Below, one piece after another: positions 3,082-30,956 of a stretch of 49,829 bases of DNA (positions within the stretch are counted from its first letter, which is position 1; every line of letters starts with the position of its first letter). Made by a program: the position numbers and the translations under genes. The notes beneath the pieces are model-generated. The model did not search any database and was not told the DNA's origin. It saw nothing but the letters and a program-made list of their open reading frames with translations. The stretch lies in the NCBI GenBank assembly GCA_022450705.1, contig JAKUPP010000003.1, positions 1 to 49,829 of the forward strand, in the 5' to 3' direction. Source of the DNA: Alphaproteobacteria bacterium. Lineage in GTDB: Bacteria; Pseudomonadota; Alphaproteobacteria; GCA-002720895.

Positions 3082-4734
3082 ATGTTTAAAAGAATTCTAT
3101 TTAATTTTTTATTTATTTTTACTCTTTGTTGTTTAACAGGGTGTGAAGAGTTTTATAGTTTTGAAGCAAAAAAACTTAATAAAAAAGTTCAGGAACTTAT
3201 TGAGGAATCAAAAACAATTAGTGATACAGATAAAAAAATTATACTTTTGTCAAATGCTTTAAATAAGCTTGAAAAAATTCAAAAAAGATACCCGAAAACT
3301 AAGGTTGCAAGACTACATAGAAAAGAAAAAAAAATTAATAATCTTAATTTAAATATTGATGAACTTAAAAAAATATCATCAAATGAAAAAATTGAGAGAG
3401 AAAAAAATGCTAATCTTGATGAAATAAAAAAAAATATCGAATTAGCTGATGCGGAATTTAGAAATGGTAATACATTGAAAAGTTCTTTAAAATTACTTAA
3501 TGCAGCCGAATTATCTATTGATCAAATTGGTGATACAAGAACAAAATCTAGAATATCGAATGAAATTAGTAAATTAAGAATATCCTTGAATGATAAAGAA
3601 AAAGCATTTGAAAATTTATTGATGTCTGAAAAATATATTGATGAAATGTATACTGATCTTCCAAAAAAAATTAAAAATTTAACAAAAGTTTATAAAATGT
3701 ACCATGAATTAAATAAAGAAGATAAAAAGAAAGAAATAGAAAAAAAAATATATTTAATAATAAATACTGAAATATCAAATAATGATAATAAAGCAGTTGC
3801 GTTTACAGAAGTTGCAAAGATTAATTTAGAAATAAAAAATTCTTCTAAAGTAAAAGAAGATCTAATAAAAGCATCAAAACTTTCAGAAAAATCAAATACT
3901 TATTTAGATATAGCAAAAATATTATATGAAGCTAATGATATTAAAGAGCTCAATGAGATGTTAAAAAAAGCAAAGATTGCAGCAAAATCAAAAGATCAAG
4001 AATTTTGGATTATTAGAGAGTTAATAAATATAAGTTTATTTGAGGACTTAATTAATAAAAAAGAAGATAGTTACAAAACTTTATTGGATGCAAAAAATAA
4101 TATTCCAAACATTCCTGATGAAAGATTAGTTTTAGAACTTGTTGATGCTTTTGCAAAAATTAACAAAATTGAAGAGGCTGAAAAATTAATTAAATTAATT
4201 AAACCAAAGTATGAACAATCGATGGCGTATGCATTTATTGGTAAACAACTTGCAATTCAAGGAAAAAAAAAAGAAATGAAATTCTTCTCAGATAAAGCTT
4301 TAAAAGTAGCTCCTGATTCAGTTGTAGGAAATTATGAATTTCAAGGACTTCCTGGCTTTTCTGCTAAAGGTAGAGTTTTTGCTGAAGTTGCTGAATCATA
4401 TGCTTTAATAGGTAATTTTAAAATTGCATATGAGTTGTTAGGTTCCATTGAAAGCGATAGATTTTATAAAGAAGGAGTTTCAGGAGTTTTAATTATACAA
4501 GCAAAAAATGATAAACTAGGAGCAAGAAACCTAGCGTCAAAAATGCTAAAGCTTGGTGGTAAAATTATAGACAATAAATTAATAGGTAAAATAGCATATG
4601 CTCAAGCAATCAGTGGTGACATAGAGAATTCATTATTAACTACAAAAAAAATGGATATAGGATTTGATTTTTCTCAAGTGTTAATAAATATTGCTAGCCA
4701 AATTAGTCTTCAACAAGCAAATCCTTTAACTTAG
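3082..4734 (+). CDS. large lipoprotein, helical-repeat (TPR-like) architecture, unknown function
   Basis: Lipobox LTGC after a hydrophobic leader. The 550-aa protein is K/E/L-rich and helical with repeated A/L/Y patterns. Confidence 0.6.
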   Translation: MFKRILFNFLFIFTLCCLTGCEEFYSFEAKKLNKKVQELIEESKTISDTDKKIILLSNALNKLEKIQKRYPKTKVARLHRKEKKINNLNLNIDELKKISSNEKIEREKNANLDEIKKNIELADAEFRNGNTLKSSLKLLNAAELSIDQIGDTRTKSRISNEISKLRISLNDKEKAFENLLMSEKYIDEMYTDLPKKIKNLTKVYKMYHELNKEDKKKEIEKKIYLIINTEISNNDNKAVAFTEVAKINLEIKNSSKVKEDLIKASKLSEKSNTYLDIAKILYEANDIKELNEMLKKAKIAAKSKDQEFWIIRELINISLFEDLINKKEDSYKTLLDAKNNIPNIPDERLVLELVDAFAKINKIEEAEKLIKLIKPKYEQSMAYAFIGKQLAIQGKKKEMKFFSDKALKVAPDSVVGNYEFQGLPGFSAKGRVFAEVAESYALIGNFKIAYELLGSIESDRFYKEGVSGVLIIQAKNDKLGARNLASKMLKLGGKIIDNKLIGKIAYAQAISGDIENSLLTTKKMDIGFDFSQVLINIASQISLQQANPLT

Positions 4735-23797: not shown

Positions 23798-24715
23798 TTA
23801 ACAATTGTTTTCTTGAATTAAAAAATTTGTTTTTTTTAAAATGTCTCTTTCAGAATCAGGATATTGTTTTAAAATATTTTTCAAAGCATCGCAAGACTCT
23901 TTTTTTTTATCTAAATTAGAAAAAGAAATTCCTATTTTTAATAAACTTGCTGGAGCTTTTTCGTGTTTTTTATGATTTTTAATTATTTCACCATAAGCTA
24001 GAACTGCTTCGGGATACTTTTCTCTTACAAATAATGACTCTCCTAGCCAATAATAAGCGCTGGGGGTATTTACATCTTTTGGATATTTTTCCACAAAACC
24101 TCTAAAAGCATTTTCTGCATCTGAATAATTTAAATTTTGTAACGAATCTTTCCCGTAACTAAATAAACTATCTGGTGTTTGAAAATTTCTTGCTATTTCT
24201 ATGGCTACATCTTCAGATTTTTGTTCTTTAATAGTTCCTAAAATTTCTGTATCACCTCCTGAAGTATTTACATCAGATGTGTTTTTTGGATATGCATATG
24301 TATCTTTTTCATCAGATCTATCTCTTGCGCCTACAGGTAGTCCTCCTGAGGAGGTATTATTTTTTGTTGATAATCTAAAATCGACATCAGAACTAATTGT
24401 ATCTAATTTGGCTTGCAGTTGATCTAATCTGAAAAAGATTTCTTCAAACTGTCCGTTCATTTTTGCAAAATCATTTTCAAGTTTATTTACTCTTCTTTGA
24501 TATTTTGGAGGCAAAGGTTTTTTATCCTCTTTTACTAATGTATTGCCTTCAGGAGCATACAAAGATTTTTGTATATCAGATAATTCTTGTTCTAAACGAT
24601 TTAATTTCTCAGCTAGCAAATTATAATCAAATTCATCTACTGCATTTGAATTGAATGTTATTAAAAAAAATAAAATGAAAACGTAGTTAAAAATCTTAGA
24701 TTTAATATTAAACAT
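23798..24715 (-). CDS. cpoB: Tol-Pal system protein CpoB/YbgF
   Basis: Signal peptide, N-terminal coiled coil and C-terminal TPR region (YYWLGESLFVREKYPEAVLAYGEII). It lies immediately after pal. Confidence 0.85.
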   Translation of the reverse strand: MFNIKSKIFNYVFILFFLITFNSNAVDEFDYNLLAEKLNRLEQELSDIQKSLYAPEGNTLVKEDKKPLPPKYQRRVNKLENDFAKMNGQFEEIFFRLDQLQAKLDTISSDVDFRLSTKNNTSSGGLPVGARDRSDEKDTYAYPKNTSDVNTSGGDTEILGTIKEQKSEDVAIEIARNFQTPDSLFSYGKDSLQNLNYSDAENAFRGFVEKYPKDVNTPSAYYWLGESLFVREKYPEAVLAYGEIIKNHKKHEKAPASLLKIGISFSNLDKKKESCDALKNILKQYPDSERDILKKTNFLIQENNC

Positions 24716-24796
24716 TTTTTGTATAACTAAATTTTATAAAACTTAGTTCTATAAATATTTAAGATTACTATAAAATCAAGAGAAGAGAAGAATAAT

Positions 24797-25270
24797 TTAT
24801 CTATCTACGTCTAATGTTGTAACAGATCTTCTATTTAATGTCCAAGAATCTTCAAACGATCCCTCTTTGTCTGGTCTTTCTTTTCCATATGAAACAGTGT
24901 TTAATCTGCCTTCAGCAATACCCATTGATGTTAGATATTCTCTAACTGAATTTGCTCTTCTTTCACCTAATGCTAAATTATACTCACGAGTACCTCTTTC
25001 ATCGCAGTGCCCTTCAATAAGGATAAATTTGTCTGGGTTTTGATCCATCCAAGTAACTTGCATATCCAATGTGCTCTCTGCCATTGAAGTAAGTAAATAT
25101 GAGTCATAATCAAAATAGATTTTTGCAGGAACTGTTCCATCTTTATCAAGATAGGACATTCCGCCTTTTTCATAAAGACCTGTTGATGTATCTTCCATCC
25201 CGCCTGTGCTAGTGCAACTATATAAGAAGACTGTTAAAAGAAGTATTGTGATAGATCTAAAATTAAACAT
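24797..25270 (-). CDS. pal: peptidoglycan-associated lipoprotein Pal
   Basis: Lipobox FLYSC and OmpA-like domain IEGHCDERGTREYNLALGERRANSV. I prefer the start at MFNFRS (25270) over the track start at 25288. Confidence 0.93.
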   Translation of the reverse strand: MFNFRSITILLLTVFLYSCTSTGGMEDTSTGLYEKGGMSYLDKDGTVPAKIYFDYDSYLLTSMAESTLDMQVTWMDQNPDKFILIEGHCDERGTREYNLALGERRANSVREYLTSMGIAEGRLNTVSYGKERPDKEGSFEDSWTLNRRSVTTLDVDR

Positions 25271-25355
25271 TTCTATAAAACCATACATATAAATTATTAT
25301 TTAAGATAATTATATTAATCGATGTTTTAGATACAAGTGTTTTTTATCTTTTTTT

Positions 25356-26678
25356 TCAATCTAACAAAGGAGACCAAGCAGGATCAGATGCTTCTAAAGG
25401 TGTAATAATTTCTTTCTCATGAAAACCTGTTAAATCAATTAAAAATATTCTTGTTTTTCCTTCTTTTCTTTTTGCTGGGTAATCTTTCTTAGTATATGCA
25501 ATCATCCTACCATTAGGGGTCCATGTAGGGCCTTCTACTAGAAAGCCTTTGGAAATAACTCTTTCACCTTTACCATCAGGTGTCATTACACCAATATAAA
25601 AAGTCTTATTAAAAAACTTAGTAAAAGCAATATAATCGCCTCTTGGAGACCAAACTGGTGTTGAATAATTTCCTTTTCCAAAACTAATTCTTTTTATTTT
25701 CTTCCCATTACTATTCATAACATAAATTTGTGGAGATCCTCCTCTATCGGAATTAAAAGCAATTTTTTTTCCATTTGGTGCATATGATGGTGAAGTGTCA
25801 ATGCCTCTATAGGTCGTTAATTGCTTCCTTATATTAGTCTTAAGATTGTAAGAATAAATATCAGAATTGCCTTCACTTGCTAGAGACATTATTACCTGGT
25901 CTCCAAATGGTGAGAAACGAGGTGCAAAAGTCATACCAGGAAAATCGCCTACTATTTCTTGCTTACCAGTTTCTATATCTAATAAATAAACTCGTGGAAT
26001 TCTTCCGATATATGATAAGTAAGTTAATTCTTGCTGGGATGGAGAAAAGCGAGGCGTAAGAACTAAGTTTGTACCATTAGTTAAAAACCGATGATTTGCA
26101 CCATCTTGATCCATAATCGCTAATCTTTTAATTCTTTTTTTTGCTGGTCCACTTTCTGCAATATATGCAATTCTTGTATCAAAATACCCAATTTCACCGG
26201 TCAATCTTTCATAAACTTTATCCGCTATGCGATGAGAAATTTGTCTCCAATTACTCCTAGCAGTATTAAATGCCCACCCGGCCATCTGCTGTTCTGCGAA
26301 AACATCCCAGAGTCTAAATTCAATTCTAATGTTACCATTTGTTTCTAATATAGTAGATCCAACAATGAGTGCTTGGGCATTTATAATTTTCCAGTCAGCA
26401 AATTTAGGCATGACATTTGGGCTTGAAATTTTTTGGATATAAGCTTTTGGGTCTATAACTTTGAATAGGCCGCTGTTATTTAAATCAGCAATTACTAACT
26501 TTGTAATTTGTTTTGCTACATCTTTTTCTTCTTCAGTAAACCCTATAAAATCATTGATACCGATAGGCGTAGGCTCTGTGTACCCTGATGTTATATCAAT
26601 CTTTAATTCTGCATTTGCATTAACAATGTAAACAAAGAAAATTAAGAATGAAAAAAATATCTTTTTTATATTTTTCAA
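25356..26678 (-). CDS. tolB: Tol-Pal system beta-propeller protein TolB
   Basis: Signal peptide, an N-terminal TolB domain and repeated P.(F/W)SP.G..IAF propeller blades. Confidence 0.95.
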   Translation of the reverse strand: MKNIKKIFFSFLIFFVYIVNANAELKIDITSGYTEPTPIGINDFIGFTEEEKDVAKQITKLVIADLNNSGLFKVIDPKAYIQKISSPNVMPKFADWKIINAQALIVGSTILETNGNIRIEFRLWDVFAEQQMAGWAFNTARSNWRQISHRIADKVYERLTGEIGYFDTRIAYIAESGPAKKRIKRLAIMDQDGANHRFLTNGTNLVLTPRFSPSQQELTYLSYIGRIPRVYLLDIETGKQEIVGDFPGMTFAPRFSPFGDQVIMSLASEGNSDIYSYNLKTNIRKQLTTYRGIDTSPSYAPNGKKIAFNSDRGGSPQIYVMNSNGKKIKRISFGKGNYSTPVWSPRGDYIAFTKFFNKTFYIGVMTPDGKGERVISKGFLVEGPTWTPNGRMIAYTKKDYPAKRKEGKTRIFLIDLTGFHEKEIITPLEASDPAWSPLLD

Positions 26679-26695
26679 TTTAAAAAAAAAAAAAG

Positions 26696-27526
26696 TTAAT
26701 AACCAATTATACTTTTTGGATCAAAATTTAAAGTTAAATTTTTCCATTTATCAAATTTATCTTTTGGTAATGGTGCATTTTTACATCTAGGGTTTAAAAC
26801 TGCCCTAAGAGCGCTTTCTGCAGCTGTTCTAAAATATCTATCTCTTTTCATTCGTCCAACGTTTGCTATTCTTGCATCAAGAACATTACCTTCTTTATTA
26901 AATCTAACTTTAATTTCTGTAGCTAAATTTCCTACTTCTCTAGCACCTGAAGGAATATTCCAACATTTTTCAAAATGTCTTCTAACAGCATCAACTTCGC
27001 TAATTGACAAATTCATTCCTAGTTTTGTAGGGGTTACTTTTTCATCGGTTTCATTTTTTTCTTTATCTTTTTTTTTTTTATCACTAAAATCTTTTTTTAC
27101 TTGCTCAATAGATTTTAAAACACTTTGTAATTGATTAGGTTTCTTTTTCAATTCCTTTAATTTAACGATCTTTTTTTTTTTTATTTGAACCAATTCTTTC
27201 GTTTCTTCAATTACTTCCGTAGTATCAGGCACTTTAGTTTGGTTATTATATTTAATATTTTCTTGATTTGCATAATTTGTTTTGTTTTTTGAAGTATCTG
27301 GAGTTTTTTTAAAATTAATTTTTGGTGCTGTAGTTTTATCTGAAATATTTATTATTTCTACTGGTAAAGGAGGTAAAAAATCTGATCTATATCTAAAAAG
27401 ATTTGGCAAACCGTAATATATCAACATTACTATAAGTAAATGAAGACCTGCCGATTGTAAAAGATAATTCTTTTTTTCTAAGATTTCTCTTTTAAGTGGA
27501 AGAAAAATTAAATTATTTATTATCAT
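26696..27526 (-). CDS. tolA: TolA-like protein (TM anchor, K/E-rich linker, TolA/TonB-type C-terminal domain)
   Basis: The architecture fits, and the gene sits between tolR and tolB, overlapping tolR by 4 nt. Confidence 0.75.
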   Translation of the reverse strand: MIINNLIFLPLKREILEKKNYLLQSAGLHLLIVMLIYYGLPNLFRYRSDFLPPLPVEIINISDKTTAPKINFKKTPDTSKNKTNYANQENIKYNNQTKVPDTTEVIEETKELVQIKKKKIVKLKELKKKPNQLQSVLKSIEQVKKDFSDKKKKDKEKNETDEKVTPTKLGMNLSISEVDAVRRHFEKCWNIPSGAREVGNLATEIKVRFNKEGNVLDARIANVGRMKRDRYFRTAAESALRAVLNPRCKNAPLPKDKFDKWKNLTLNFDPKSIIGY

Positions 27527-27978
27527 TTATTTTTTTCTATTTCAAAGTCTGTAACTAGTGCAATCTTATTAAAGCCTGCTGAAGTAATTACTGCCATTAC
27601 TTCCACTACTTTTCCATATGACAAAACCTCATCAGCTCTAATAAAAATTTTTCTATCATTTCGATTTTTTGAAATAGAAATTAATTTTGGTATTAATTTT
27701 TCTATACTTATTTCTGTATCTTGGACAAATATTTTTTCTTCTTTGTTAATTGTTATTGATAAAGGAGCTTGATCTTCAGGTAATGCTTTAGCTTTTGTTT
27801 TAGGCAAATTTATTGGAACACCAACAGTTAATAATGGCGCGGTTATCATAAATATTACTAGTAAAACAAGCATAACATCAACCATTGGAGTTACATTTAT
27901 TTGACTAATTGTTTTGTTTCTTTTTAATATTCTTGAAAGTTTTAAACTGCTTATCCTTTGTATTGGTTTGTTCGACAT
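27523..27978 (-). CDS. tolR: TolR (ExbD family)
   Basis: INVTPMVDVMLVLLVIFMI TM segment with the conserved Asp. It is 151 aa. Confidence 0.9.
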   Translation of the reverse strand: MSNKPIQRISSLKLSRILKRNKTISQINVTPMVDVMLVLLVIFMITAPLLTVGVPINLPKTKAKALPEDQAPLSITINKEEKIFVQDTEISIEKLIPKLISISKNRNDRKIFIRADEVLSYGKVVEVMAVITSAGFNKIALVTDFEIEKNK

Positions 27979-27982
27979 TTTT

Positions 27983-28675
27983 TTATTTTGTTACACGGTT
28001 AACAAATTCTTGAGCAAAAGTTTCTAATCTAGTTGAGTAATTATCAAAAACACTTGATAATTTATTGTAAGCTATGACTGCAGGTATAGCTGCAATAAGA
28101 CCTAAGGCTGTTGCAAATAATGCCTCAGCAATTCCAGGTGCTACAACAGCTAAACTAGTATTTTTTGTAATTCCTATTGCTTGAAAACTATTCATAATCC
28201 CCCAAACAGTTCCAAACAATCCAACAAAAGGTGCTGCTGATCCTAATGATGCTAAAAAAATCATATTTTTTTCTAACTTTGTAATTTCATTATTAATAGA
28301 AGAAACCAAAACGTTATTTAATCTATTTTCTATCTTATCTTTAATTTTAGAATTTCTAAGTTTTAACCACTCAATCATTGATTTGTTAAAAATTGCTATC
28401 ATAGGATTATCATTCTTACTTTCCGTTTTAGAATATAAATCTTCCAAAGAAGCTGAGGCCCAAAAAAGATCTTCAAATTTCTTTGTTACATTATTCATTT
28501 TTCTAATCATTTTTATTTTATTTATGATTATTGCCCAACTCCATATTGAGGATACAAAAAGTCCAATCATAACAAACTTAACAATTGGATCTGCTCTAAA
28601 AAATAAAGAAAAAATGGATAAATCATATGCTCCATTTTGAACTAAATTAACAGCGTCTACTGCTTGGTTTTCCAT
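27983..28675 (-). CDS. tolQ: TolQ (MotA/TolQ/ExbB proton channel)
   Basis: Three TM helices, LGSAAPFVGLFGTVWGIMNSF and IAEALFATALGL. Confidence 0.93.
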   Translation of the reverse strand: MENQAVDAVNLVQNGAYDLSIFSLFFRADPIVKFVMIGLFVSSIWSWAIIINKIKMIRKMNNVTKKFEDLFWASASLEDLYSKTESKNDNPMIAIFNKSMIEWLKLRNSKIKDKIENRLNNVLVSSINNEITKLEKNMIFLASLGSAAPFVGLFGTVWGIMNSFQAIGITKNTSLAVVAPGIAEALFATALGLIAAIPAVIAYNKLSSVFDNYSTRLETFAQEFVNRVTK

Positions 28676-28720: not shown

Positions 28721-29029
28721 TTATTTCTTTTTAACTATATCTGACACCTTTTCTAAATCGTCACTATGTACCATTATCCAAAAACCTGGTCTGCCGGATT
28801 CACATAATGCAATAACTGGTACTTTAGATTCTTTTTTTGCCATTTCATTGGTTTCATCCCAAAGAGAAATAGCAGTGTGTTTTTTTCTTAATTTGCATTC
28901 CACAAATAATTCGTTGTGAAGAGAATCAGACCTAGTATGTCTTGAACTGCCTCCGCTTAATGGTGTTCTATTTGTATTAAAATATTTTGCAACTTGTCTT
29001 TCTCTAGCTTTCCATGTTTTATCTGCCAT
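28721..29029 (-). CDS. 102-aa minimal PD-(D/E)XK nuclease-fold protein, Hjc-like (candidate Holliday-junction resolvase)
   Basis: Motif order E10-R11 ... S25-G-G-S28 ... D35 ... hydrophobic strand LFV-E44-C-K46 ... strand VPVIAL. The start is 5 nt after the yebC stop, in the slot normally held by ruvC. Confidence 0.55.
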   Translation of the reverse strand: MADKTWKARERQVAKYFNTNRTPLSGGSSRHTRSDSLHNELFVECKLRKKHTAISLWDETNEMAKKESKVPVIALCESGRPGFWIMVHSDDLEKVSDIVKKK

Positions 29030-29034
29030 TTTTT

Positions 29035-29787
29035 TTATTTATCAAAATCTATTGTATCAAAAACTTCGTTAGAAATATCATAATTTGATGAAATGTTCTG
29101 AACATCCTCATTATCTTCTAACTGATTAATTAAATTAAAAAGTTTTTTTCCATCTTCTTTATTAACATTTACTTTATTAGATGATATCCAAGTTAAAGAA
29201 ACTGAAAAAGGCTCTAATGGTAATTTTGAAATTTTTTCTTTTATATTTATAATTTTTTTTGGATCACAATAAATTGTATAACTATCGCCTTCATTAATAA
29301 CATCGTCAGCACCAGACTCTACAGCCAAATCAAAAATTTTACTTTCTAAATTTTTATCTGATTTATAAATCAACTCCCCTTTTCTCTGAAAACTATGTGA
29401 TACGCCCCCACTTTCTGTTATTGATCCTCCATTTTTTGAAAAAATCTGTCTTATTTCAGATATTGTTCTATTTTTATTATCAGTCATAGTTTCAACTATT
29501 AATGAAGTTCCGCCAGGACCAAAACCCTCATATTTTATTTCTTCAAGACTGCTCGTGTCGGTATCAGAGCCTTTTTTAATTGCTCTTTCTATATTATCTT
29601 TTGGAACATTTGCAGCCTTTGCAGCATCTATAGCTGTTCGTAATCTGTGATTTGAATCTGGATCGCTTCCTCCTTGTTTTGATGCGATTTGTATTTCTCT
29701 TCCTAATTTTGCAAATATTTTAGCTCTTTTTTTGTCTTGAGCTCCTTTTCTAAACATTATATTCTTAAATTTTGAATGACCGGCCAT
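29035..29787 (-). CDS. yebC: YebC/PmpR-family DNA-binding regulator
   Basis: The N-terminus MAGHSKFKNIMFRKGAQDKKRAKIFAKLGREI is diagnostic of the family. Confidence 0.93.
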   Translation of the reverse strand: MAGHSKFKNIMFRKGAQDKKRAKIFAKLGREIQIASKQGGSDPDSNHRLRTAIDAAKAANVPKDNIERAIKKGSDTDTSSLEEIKYEGFGPGGTSLIVETMTDNKNRTISEIRQIFSKNGGSITESGGVSHSFQRKGELIYKSDKNLESKIFDLAVESGADDVINEGDSYTIYCDPKKIINIKEKISKLPLEPFSVSLTWISSNKVNVNKEDGKKLFNLINQLEDNEDVQNISSNYDISNEVFDTIDFDK

Positions 29788-29808: not shown

Positions 29809-30612
29809 TTAAGAACTTTCTTCTAAAGATCCACCCTTAATTATTTGCTTTATAGATTCTGCTAAACCTGTTTTATCATTTAAATCAACTAAAACACAAG
29901 ATAAAGTTGCTTCGCCTGTAGCAGGATGTATACCTTTCACAGGCGTTTTTTTTTTAAATCTTTCAAGAGCTTTGGTTTTATCCATACCAATAATTGAGTC
30001 GTAATCACCACACATTCCTAAATCCGAAATAAAAGCTGTTCCATTTGAAAGTATTCTTGCATCGGCAGTTGGAACATGGGTATGTGTTCCTACAATCAAA
30101 CCTGCTTTTCCATCAAACTCATGTCCTATAGCCATTTTTTCACTTGTTGCTTCACAATGTATATCAATTATTATTCCAGAAATATTTTCTCCAATTATTT
30201 TCTCATTAATAACTTTTCTTACAGATTCAAATGGGTCATCTAAAGCATTCATAAAGACTCGTCCCATAACATTAATAACTAATATCTTTTTTTGATTTTT
30301 TTCATAAATTCCAAAACCATTTCCCGGGGTATCGATTGGATAATTATTAGGTCTCAATAATCTTTTTTCTTTATCAATAAATTTAAATACATCGTTATTA
30401 TCAAAAATATGATTCCCGCCTGTAATTACATCTATTCCTGCTGAGAACAAATCATCACAAATTGATTTTGATATACCTTTTCCATGAGAGGCATTCTCGC
30501 CATTAGCTAAAACAAAATCAGGATTATACTTTTTTTTAAAATATGGTAGTTCTTTTATTAAAGCATCTCTTCCTGATCTGCCAAATATGTCTCCAAAAAA
30601 AAGAATTTTCAT
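29809..30612 (-). CDS. YmdB-like (TIGR00282-type) metallophosphoesterase
   Basis: FFGDIFGRSGR, ANGENASHGKG, GGNH and GTHTHV metal-binding motifs. Confidence 0.85.
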   Translation of the reverse strand: MKILFFGDIFGRSGRDALIKELPYFKKKYNPDFVLANGENASHGKGISKSICDDLFSAGIDVITGGNHIFDNNDVFKFIDKEKRLLRPNNYPIDTPGNGFGIYEKNQKKILVINVMGRVFMNALDDPFESVRKVINEKIIGENISGIIIDIHCEATSEKMAIGHEFDGKAGLIVGTHTHVPTADARILSNGTAFISDLGMCGDYDSIIGMDKTKALERFKKKTPVKGIHPATGEATLSCVLVDLNDKTGLAESIKQIIKGGSLEESS

Positions 30613-30956
30613 TTAGTCAATGATTGTATACGAGAAATTAATTTATCTATTTTATTTTTTACTATTGATGCTTTCTCAGAGTTTCTTTTCCTTAAGTTTT
30701 CTAATTCAATTTTATAATTATTTCCATAAGGATTATCAGGTTTAACTTTATCTTTCATAATATTATTTAATTTTTCACTCAATAAAATTCCTGTTAAAAC
30801 TAGAAGTCTTGAATGGTCTACGTTCTTTAATTTAACTGCTAAATTTTTAACTTCTTCATCGAAATACTTTGATAATTCTAAAACATATTTTTCCTTAGTT
30901 TTATCACAAGTAATATCATAATAACGTCCATTTATATTTATTCTTAAAACTGGCAT
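30609..30956 (-). CDS. zapA: cell-division protein ZapA
   Basis: I.INGR.Y.I.C start, followed by a C-terminal coiled coil. It is 115 aa. Confidence 0.8.
   Translation of the reverse strand: MPVLRININGRYYDITCDKTKEKYVLELSKYFDEEVKNLAVKLKNVDHSRLLVLTGILLSEKLNNIMKDKVKPDNPYGNNYKIELENLRKRNSEKASIVKNKIDKLISRIQSLTK

Follow-up and report, generated by a model that had tools for sequence, protein, structure and literature searches.

A phage-type Hjc-like nuclease gene between yebC and tolQ as a candidate Holliday junction resolvase of SAR11-type bacteria

This analysis concerns a small gene, here called gene X, found on a stretch of 49,829 nucleotides (nt) of alphaproteobacterial DNA (GTDB lineage Bacteria; Pseudomonadota; Alphaproteobacteria; GCA-002720895; assembly GCA_022450705.1, contig JAKUPP010000003.1, positions 1 to 49,829), hereafter the window. 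Gene X is an open reading frame (ORF) of 102 amino acids (aa) located between yebC and tolQ, and its product is probably a Holliday junction resolvase in the form of a small Hjc-type PD-(D/E)XK endonuclease, a reading to which we assign a probability of about 0.6. That the protein belongs to the PD-(D/E)XK nucleases of the phage "Hjc-like resolvase" type can be proposed with good confidence. The role in the cell is proposed because of the family annotation, the match of residues with archaeal Hjc, the recombination-module context of phage relatives, the position after yebC and the published absence of other dedicated resolvases in cultured SAR11.

Gene X lies on the minus strand (28721-29029), starts with ATG and is translated to MADKTWKARERQVAKYFNTNRTPLSGGSSRHTRSDSLHNELFVECKLRKKHTAISLWDETNEMAKKESKVPVIALCESGRPGFWIMVHSDDLEKVSDIVKKK. 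Its start is 5 nt from the stop of yebC and its own stop is 45 nt from tolQ. Along the protein, the residues E10-R11, the turn S25-G-G-S28, D35 and E44-C-K46 can be read, together with the segments VPVIALCE and FWIMVH. The codons of E10 (29000-29002), D35 (28925-28927), E44 (28898-28900) and K46 (28892-28894) were read from the DNA, and those of E10, R11, D35, E44, C45 and K46 agree with it. An initial annotation of the window had described this ORF, its spacing from both neighbours and these residues, and all of them were found as described on reading the ORF and the DNA. The features that bear directly on gene X are the following, dN/dS being the ratio of non-synonymous to synonymous substitution rates.

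28721-29029, minus strand: gene X, putative phage-type Hjc-like PD-(D/E)XK nuclease and candidate Holliday junction resolvase (ORF, PHROG 2002, dN/dS, hhalign, Foldseek with model 1)
28892-29002, minus strand: predicted active-site segment of X, with E10-R11 (28997-29002), R21, S25-G26, D35 (28925-28927) and E44-x-K46 (28892-28900) (residue conservation, hhalign)
29035-29787, minus strand: yebC (TACO1/YebC), directly upstream of X (Pfam PF20772, PF01709)
27983-28675, minus strand: tolQ (MotA/TolQ/ExbB), directly downstream of X (Pfam PF01618)

Gene X is a genuine gene under strong constraint. Relatives collected by word-indexed search fall in 291 clusters at 90% identity, and by exhaustive profile search the clusters at the 50% level number 1191 for E < 1e-3 and 748 for E < 1e-10; wherever a source gives a relative a name, that name is "hypothetical protein". 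One variant is present on at least 999 contigs. Across 83 distinct SAR11-type coding sequences (2338 pairs) the median dN/dS is 0.03, and the possibility of a spurious ORF was rejected on the basis of conservation and dN/dS. As a separate observation, the SAR11-type variant P0143 occurs on a "contig" with a stated length of 140,429,288 bases, which is presumably bacterial sequence within a eukaryotic or chimeric assembly.

Conservation is concentrated on a defined set of residues. In 96 representative relatives that are 38-58% identical to X, the residues E10, R21, S25, G26, D35, E44 and K46 are invariant, R11 being conserved in at least 90% of relatives, while in all 76 distinct chromosomal and viral sequences E10, R11, R21, S25, G26, D35, E44 and K46 are invariant. 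Position 45, by contrast, can be taken by C, V, A, M, Q or N. Such a pattern is typical of a PD-(D/E)XK active site in which the first helix carries an additional acidic residue.

The family to which X can be assigned is known mainly from phages. X matches PHROG 2002, annotated as "Holliday junction resolvase" in the category DNA metabolism, at an E value of 1.7e-7, with residues 3-97 aligned to profile positions 16-115 of 130, and the same profile is matched by 86 of the 96 relatives (best E 6.8e-12). The resolvase name of PHROG 2002 is an annotation, and no experimentally tested member of it was found; X differs from this family in that it belongs to the core chromosome of a cellular lineage, where it is fixed, passed on vertically and not surrounded by phage genes. 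The Pfam family PF24608 PDDEXK_15 ("Phage putative PDDEXK endonuclease") gives weak matches in 14 of the 96 relatives (best E 1.9e-4) and none for X itself; the X family and PDDEXK_15 look related, which falls short of membership. X has no match in Pfam or NCBIfam even at E <= 10, including none to RuvC (PF02075), RecU (PF03838) or RusA (PF05866), no match to PDB sequences by phmmer or hmmsearch, Hjc included, and no tblastn similarity to E. coli RuvC.

Two further observations were made among the relatives. The family phrog_244, named "RusA-like Holliday junction resolvase" in PHROGs, is matched by 25 of the 96 relatives, and Pfam RusA is not among the 25 Pfam families listed for X relatives; the name may be a mislabel, or phrog_244 may be a PD-(D/E)XK family. 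In parallel, the relatives P0172, P0178, P0220, P0238 and P0250 are 160-180 aa long and carry one N-terminal catalytic half (E...D...ExK), followed by a C-terminal half (helix, PV-strand and GFW-strand) that is doubled; this resembles a partial dimer joined into a single chain. The sole genomic context among these longer relatives is a contig of 918 base pairs. The contigs of the relatives P0190, P0208 and P0172 are too short to give useful context.

The comparison with archaeal Hjc was carried out by hhalign against an alignment of four solved proteins and eight database Hjc sequences. The database search for Hjc had returned almost only Thermococcales, and the solved sequences were added to broaden the profile; those of Pfu (1GEF) and Sso (1HH1) were confirmed as identical in PDB, and those of Sto (2EO0) and Afu (2WCW) were taken from printed alignments. 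With two broad query alignments of the X family (A5 and A2), X 8-92 was aligned to Pfu Hjc 7-95 and the conserved residues were paired as E10/E9, R11/R10, R21/R25, D35/D33, E44/E46 and K46/K48 (X/Pfu Hjc); when the query is the SAR11-only alignment A1, the aligned part shrinks to residues 35-92. The pairwise E values of the hhalign comparison with the X family are 1e-3 to 1.6e-4. X thus has the residue order of Hjc, namely E-R on helix 1, an R before the S/G turn, a D and E-x-K, and the Hjc-like order claimed by the initial annotation is borne out by conserved residues that map one-to-one on Pfu Hjc positions. Positions 9, 10, 25, 33, 46 and 48 of Pfu Hjc are those that we take to be functionally important from the mutagenesis literature. 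The two proteins are of comparable size (102 aa for X, around 120-140 aa for Hjc) and alike in the succession of E-R helix, R...S-G turn, D strand, E-x-K strand, helix and hydrophobic P-V-x-A-L strand. They differ in the spacing from the R...S-G turn to the D and at the C-terminus, which is shorter in X, and Hjc is archaeal whereas X is bacterial and phage-borne.

One of two conflicting structural models points in the same direction. AlphaFold model 1 (m2b2f34017e11), built with 53 sequences, has a mean predicted local distance difference test score (pLDDT) of 78.7 and consists of a helix, strands, a helix, a strand, a strand and a helix. In a Foldseek search of PDB with this model, the top nine matches are all archaeal Hjc (1gef, 2wiw, 2wiz, 2wcz, 2wcw, 2wj0), the best one having an E value of 4.6e-3, a probability of 1.0 and a template modelling (TM) score of around 0.5, with 2eo0 and 1hh1 lower in the list. 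Against BFVD, the same model finds phage proteins, several of them named Holliday junction resolvase, at E values down to 1.1e-5 and TM scores up to 0.73.

The position of gene X is fixed in related genomes. One genome per GTDB species was scanned, which gave 177 species with an X relative; 80 of these 177 loci were examined and 6 loci from metagenomes or metagenome-assembled genomes were added. The query was the SAR11-type alignment alone, so that the scan reports SAR11-type genomes only and is silent on other phyla. The 80 loci come from SAR11 single-cell genomes, Pelagibacteraceae-labelled genomes, MarineAlpha5 and MarineAlpha6 bins and one HIMB59-labelled bin, the closest to the window being MarineAlpha6 bins and Pelagibacteraceae SP38, with X 89-94% identical. 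YebC is directly upstream of X in all 87 SAR11-type sources, and the order ymdB-yebC-X-tolQ-tolR is kept in each of the 84 loci with enough flank and across 80 GTDB species, so that the yebC-tolQ slot first noted for X in the window held in every related genome examined. The aligned gaps at X loci have a median of 24 nt, and in L001-L006 tolQ begins within X, with an overlap of 11 nt. One copy, in L048 (NHJW02000023.1, "Gammaproteobacteria bacterium TMED225"), groups with Pelagibacteraceae-labelled copies in a neighbour-joining tree, and the label or the binning of that bin is probably wrong.

None of the neighbouring proteins is as well conserved as X. When the window is compared with the large Pelagibacteraceae-labelled group, identity is around 69% for X, 51% for YebC, 48% for TolQ, 47% for TolR, 45% for YmdB and 52% for TolB, and between deep lineages X is 61-70% identical when YebC, TolQ, TolB and YmdB are at 44-55%. 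Across lineages, the identity of X tracks that of the neighbouring proteins, and vertical inheritance of the gene is proposed because its divergence rises and falls with theirs.

In other alphaproteobacteria, the genes ruvC, ruvA, ruvB and ybgC are found between yebC and tolQ; Caulobacter and Brucella are presumably examples of this arrangement. None of the four was found in the window by tblastn with E. coli RuvA, RuvB, RuvC and YbgC, where the sole RuvB match is a weak Walker-motif match inside ftsH, and their claimed absence from this stretch is therefore upheld. With the same queries, no homologue lies within around 10 kb of X in 86 related loci, RuvB matches being again limited to weak Walker-motif matches to FtsH, and no RuvA, RuvB or RuvC was found in around 1.4 Mb of SAR11-type DNA around X.

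The absence of the Ruv proteins from whole genomes has been reported for cultured SAR11. The distribution of YebC, RuvC, RecU, RuvA and RuvB across sequenced bacteria was tabulated by Zhang, Lin and Gao 2012 (PMC3403352, Additional file 1/Table S1). Both Pelagibacter HTCC1062 and HTCC7211 are scored there as positive for YebC and negative for RuvC, RecU, RuvA and RuvB, while the adjacent rows of Anaplasma, Ehrlichia and Midichloria are positive for RuvC, RuvA and RuvB. According to the same work, the yebC-ruvC operon is widespread, and RuvAB is absent in less than 2% of bacteria, mostly small-genome parasites. The initial annotation had presented X as a replacement of RuvC, a proposal that a canonical ruvC elsewhere in the genome would speak against, and for cultured SAR11 the RuvC-negative and RecU-negative scores of both isolates favour it, on the assumption that these isolates carry X. 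The proposal stands in so far as X occupies the ruvC slot and RuvC is scored absent, but it has to be widened, as RuvA and RuvB are scored absent too and what is reported as missing is the whole resolvasome, not RuvC alone. Since RuvA and RuvB are also scored absent, X would be a stand-alone resolvase rather than a part of a RuvAB-RuvC machine.

A 2025 study lists SAR11 as lacking RecBCD, RecF and MutSL and does not mention Ruv; the supplement of this ISME J paper contains no Ruv terms, and the searchable literature on SAR11 and Pelagibacter holds no discussion of ruv genes or of the Holliday junction. Metagenomes were scanned for ruvB with a DNA pattern for the RuvB motif GPPGLGKTTLA that was biased towards adenine and thymine (AT), and 120 AT-rich loci were returned. 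None of them has X nearby or a YebC more than 44% identical to that of the window, and tetranucleotide similarity gave no discrimination between sources of ruvB loci. The best candidate cluster (L117) was rejected as SAR11, as it looked like Flavobacteria, with alternative complex III and cox genes. The scan is consistent with SAR11 lacking ruvB and proves nothing.

A large set of close relatives is carried by viruses. In IMG/VR, 202 viral contigs encode X-like proteins that are 60-77% identical to X, and 80 of the 202 loci were examined. Neither yebC nor tolQ is present in these 80 loci, whose guanine-plus-cytosine (GC) fraction ranges from 0.27 to 0.52; because of both features, they are not fragments of SAR11 chromosomes. 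In 73 of the 80, a large terminase gene starts 0-300 nt downstream of the X-like gene. The contigs of L214-L293 represent uncultured marine phages of around 35-38 kb in which a terS-like gene and terL flank the X-like gene (for instance L223 7302-10057); their TerL proteins are 66-99% identical among themselves, and their GC spread suggests varied hosts. In L223, the order is terS-like gene, X-like gene, terL, acetyltransferase genes, portal, protease or scaffold and major head protein, with helicase and primase genes on the other side, and the viral copy matches PHROG 2002 at E 3.4e-10. Among cultured phages, the one with the closest TerL is Pelagibacter phage EXVC032P Baldr (host HTCC1062), at 80% identity to the TerL of L223. 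Baldr was considered as a carrier of X and rejected, as an unrelated 108-aa gene takes the position upstream of terL.

Further relatives are found in other phage contexts. The uvMED phage protein BAQ86412.1 falls in one of the protein clusters of the X family. The relative in L296 adjoins UDG, a PDDEXK_1 nuclease, an AAA_24 ATPase and DNA polymerase A, and the one in L297 follows a DUF3799/PDDEXK_1-like protein and precedes an MT-A70 methylase, while those in L007 and L093 adjoin methylases. In Bacteroides phage BS162P1 (OP172706.1, L089 5323-6315), an X-type domain with 45% identity to X makes up around 95 residues at the C-terminus of a 330-aa protein, annotated as "DNA endonuclease I-HmuI", whose N-terminal part matches homing endonucleases; the X-type domain thus appears to be used in modular nucleases as well. 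The X family is mainly phage-borne, and its phage members lie in replication, recombination or packaging modules, which are the usual places of phage resolvases. In the neighbour-joining tree of around 95 aligned residues, viral sequences fall between chromosomal groups, and some of them reach 85% identity with Pelagibacteraceae-labelled copies, which suggests that the gene has been exchanged between SAR11 and its phages, in a direction that so short an alignment does not allow to be trusted.

The gene itself, its conservation, its synteny, its family and the correspondence of its motifs are shown by these data. On this basis, a working mechanism can be outlined in which dimerisation, junction specificity and cellular role are those that we infer for X. 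By analogy with Hjc, X would be a Mg2+-dependent endonuclease that binds four-way DNA junctions as a homodimer and makes paired nicks, with a metal site provided by E10 on the first helix, D35 on the second strand and E44-x-K46 on the third strand; R11, R21 and the S25-G26 turn would contact the DNA backbone. One copy from the phage gene pool would have been fixed in the SAR11-type core chromosome, between yebC and tolQ, and inherited vertically from then on. It could serve as the main or only dedicated junction resolvase of SAR11, given the reported loss of RuvA, RuvB, RuvC and RecU, and branch migration would be supplied by some other helicase. The broader scenario, in which SAR11-type bacteria dropped the whole of RuvABC and rely on one phage-derived Hjc-like resolvase that sits in the ancestral ruvC position and is still exchanged with phages, is put forward more tentatively and is somewhat less likely than not.

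Several points weigh against X being an Hjc-type junction resolvase. AlphaFold model 2 (m506eecc52f43), built with 127 sequences and reaching a pLDDT of 92.3, has the same three helices and the same last two strands, but DSSP assigns no strands around residues 35-46 and the model has no match in PDB (best E 1.3, no Hjc). The mismatch might come from opened or dimer-like central strands, which is a guess on our part. The fold comparison is therefore split: model 1 finds archaeal Hjc, as the initial annotation would lead one to expect, but the more confident model 2 matches nothing in PDB. The assignment of the fold would thus depend on the less confident model together with the sequence motifs, and an Hjc-type fold is supported but not settled, given that the two models conflict. 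The hhalign probability is only 20-50%, and around 7% with a profile made of Thermococcales Hjc alone. X has no match to Pfam Hjc (PF01870), for which one of the 96 relatives reaches E 0.028, and it falls outside that family; "phage-type Hjc-like" is an accurate label for X by sequence, "member of Pfam Hjc" is not. PD-(D/E)XK nucleases also serve many functions, as in the homing-endonuclease fusion of BS162P1, and the position next to terL could be that of a packaging nuclease. Finally, the absence of RuvABC comes from one computational table of 2012 and two isolates of subclade Ia, and the deep-branching lineage of the window and Pelagibacteraceae-labelled genomes have only around 50% identity in the proteins encoded next to X.

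Some of these points feed the alternative that survives best, namely that X is a domesticated phage PD-(D/E)XK nuclease with a job other than Holliday junction resolution, such as cutting other branched or damaged DNA, processing incoming DNA, hindering phages that carry a terminase-linked homologue, or acting as a site-specific or packaging-type endonuclease. The closest non-chromosomal relatives do lie directly upstream of terL, next to a TerL close to that of a cultured SAR11 phage, the domain can be fused to a homing-endonuclease-like domain, and relatives occur beside DNA methyltransferases (L007, L093, L297); the failure to enter Pfam Hjc and the second structural model without an Hjc match fit this alternative as well. 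We nevertheless consider it unlikely. PADLOC contains no family for X or for its viral copy at E <= 0.01, and a defence-gene reading was rejected on this ground and on that of the fixed locus; none of the 84 SAR11 loci has a methylase or mobile-element gene next to X; and a fixed, vertically inherited locus whose product is better conserved than its housekeeping neighbours is unusual for defence or selfish genes. In addition, the residues paired with Hjc 9, 10, 25, 33, 46 and 48 are all conserved, and cultured SAR11 are reported to be without another dedicated resolvase.

It might also be that X is an Hjc-like resolvase but a redundant one, RuvC or RuvABC being encoded elsewhere in divergent copies missed by the 2012 table. 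What speaks for redundancy is that the absence of RuvABC is taken from a published table, that the lineage of the window is distant from the Pelagibacteraceae-labelled genomes, and that the 2025 list of recombination genes absent from SAR11 omits Ruv. This possibility is nonetheless improbable, as RuvB is among the bacterial proteins that are easiest to detect by similarity, all four of RuvA, RuvB, RuvC and RecU are scored absent in both Pelagibacter isolates next to the positive rows of Anaplasma, Ehrlichia and Midichloria, and neither the DNA around X nor the 120 AT-rich ruvB loci brought X and a Ruv protein together.

The remaining genes around X belong to one same-strand cluster in the order zapA, ymdB, yebC, X, tolQ, tolR, tolA-like gene, tolB, pal, cpoB-like gene and tilS. 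Judged from spacing only, zapA and ymdB may be in one transcription unit with yebC and X; relatives have these two genes in the same order. No terminator-like sites were found in the region, including between X and tolQ, and promoter-like matches in the region are no commoner than in shuffled sequence. The further features of the cluster are listed below.

30609-30956, minus strand: zapA (Pfam ZapA)
29809-30612, minus strand: ymdB (Pfam YmdB)
23798-27978, minus strand: rest of the Tol-Pal cluster (Pfam ExbD, TolB_N/PD40, OmpA, TPR), comprising the five genes that follow tolQ up to cpoB as given here
27523-27978, minus strand: tolR (Pfam ExbD)
26696-27526, minus strand: tolA-like gene, named by position alone, with no Pfam match
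25356-26678, minus strand: tolB (Pfam TolB_N/PD40)
24797-25288, minus strand: pal (Pfam OmpA)
23798-24715, minus strand: cpoB/ybgF-like TPR gene (Pfam TPR)

The ORF in the tolA position (26696-27526, minus strand) encodes 276 aa, is lysine-rich and has a single N-terminal hydrophobic segment; its counterpart in L001-L006 has 338 aa and is likewise without a Pfam match. Elsewhere in the window, a Pfam scan of 10 further large ORFs gave only metabolic and transport genes, and an ORF of 550 aa (3082-4734, plus strand) has no Pfam match at E <= 1e-8 within an otherwise well-annotated housekeeping region.

That X might be an accessory of the Tol-Pal or cell-division operon in the ybgC position, with nuclease-like residues that are vestigial or do not serve DNA cleavage, is highly improbable: its location 45 nt upstream of tolQ without a terminator-like site between them, its overlap with the tolQ start in L001-L006 and the same-strand cluster from zapA to cpoB without a YbgC homologue would fit, but X has no similarity to 4HBT thioesterases or Tol proteins (a YbgC-like thioesterase was rejected for this lack of similarity), its invariant residues are exactly the PD-(D/E)XK catalytic set, hundreds of close relatives occur in phages with no tol genes nearby, and the PHROG annotation is DNA metabolism.

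A resolvase of the kind proposed for X can be compared with those already known. The resolvase RusA of lambdoid prophages derives from phages and is able to stand in for RuvC in E. coli, where it is normally silent, and it has a different fold; X would have the phage-type origin in common with RusA, and differs from it in being a constrained core gene. RuvC, with its RNase H-like fold (PF02075), and X share the position directly downstream of yebC, which RuvC usually occupies, and the presumed substrate, whereas they are unrelated in sequence and fold, and X would act without RuvAB if these proteins are indeed absent as published. RecU of Firmicutes and Mollicutes is a PD-(D/E)XK resolvase that has replaced RuvC across a whole bacterial clade, in genomes that keep RuvAB (PMC3403352). 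Both RecU and X are thus non-RuvC enzymes, but RecU genomes have RuvAB and cultured SAR11 are scored without it. Taken in this way, X would combine the theme of RecU, the PD-(D/E)XK fold, with that of RusA, the phage-type origin.

Enzymes of this kind are already known, but no earlier report seems to exist of one whose gene is universal and highly constrained in the core genome of SAR11-type bacteria and takes the ruvC position in a lineage reported to lack RuvABC. To our knowledge, no other free-living Gram-negative lineage has been described with a phage-derived Hjc-like resolvase as its main resolvase. X looks like a phage nuclease that was recruited to a core cellular function at the position of the gene that it functionally replaced. 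If this is true, a family that counts more than 1000 clusters and is not covered by any Pfam or NCBIfam model would receive a name and a function.

SAR11 bacteria count among the most abundant marine organisms, and very high recombination is one of their known traits. For the cutting of crossovers, the last step of recombination, no candidate is named in the searchable literature on SAR11. Gene X represents a concrete and testable candidate, and the best one, for how these bacteria finish recombination. If it does act in this way, a stand-alone and probably less selective resolvase could contribute to the frequent and promiscuous recombination of SAR11.

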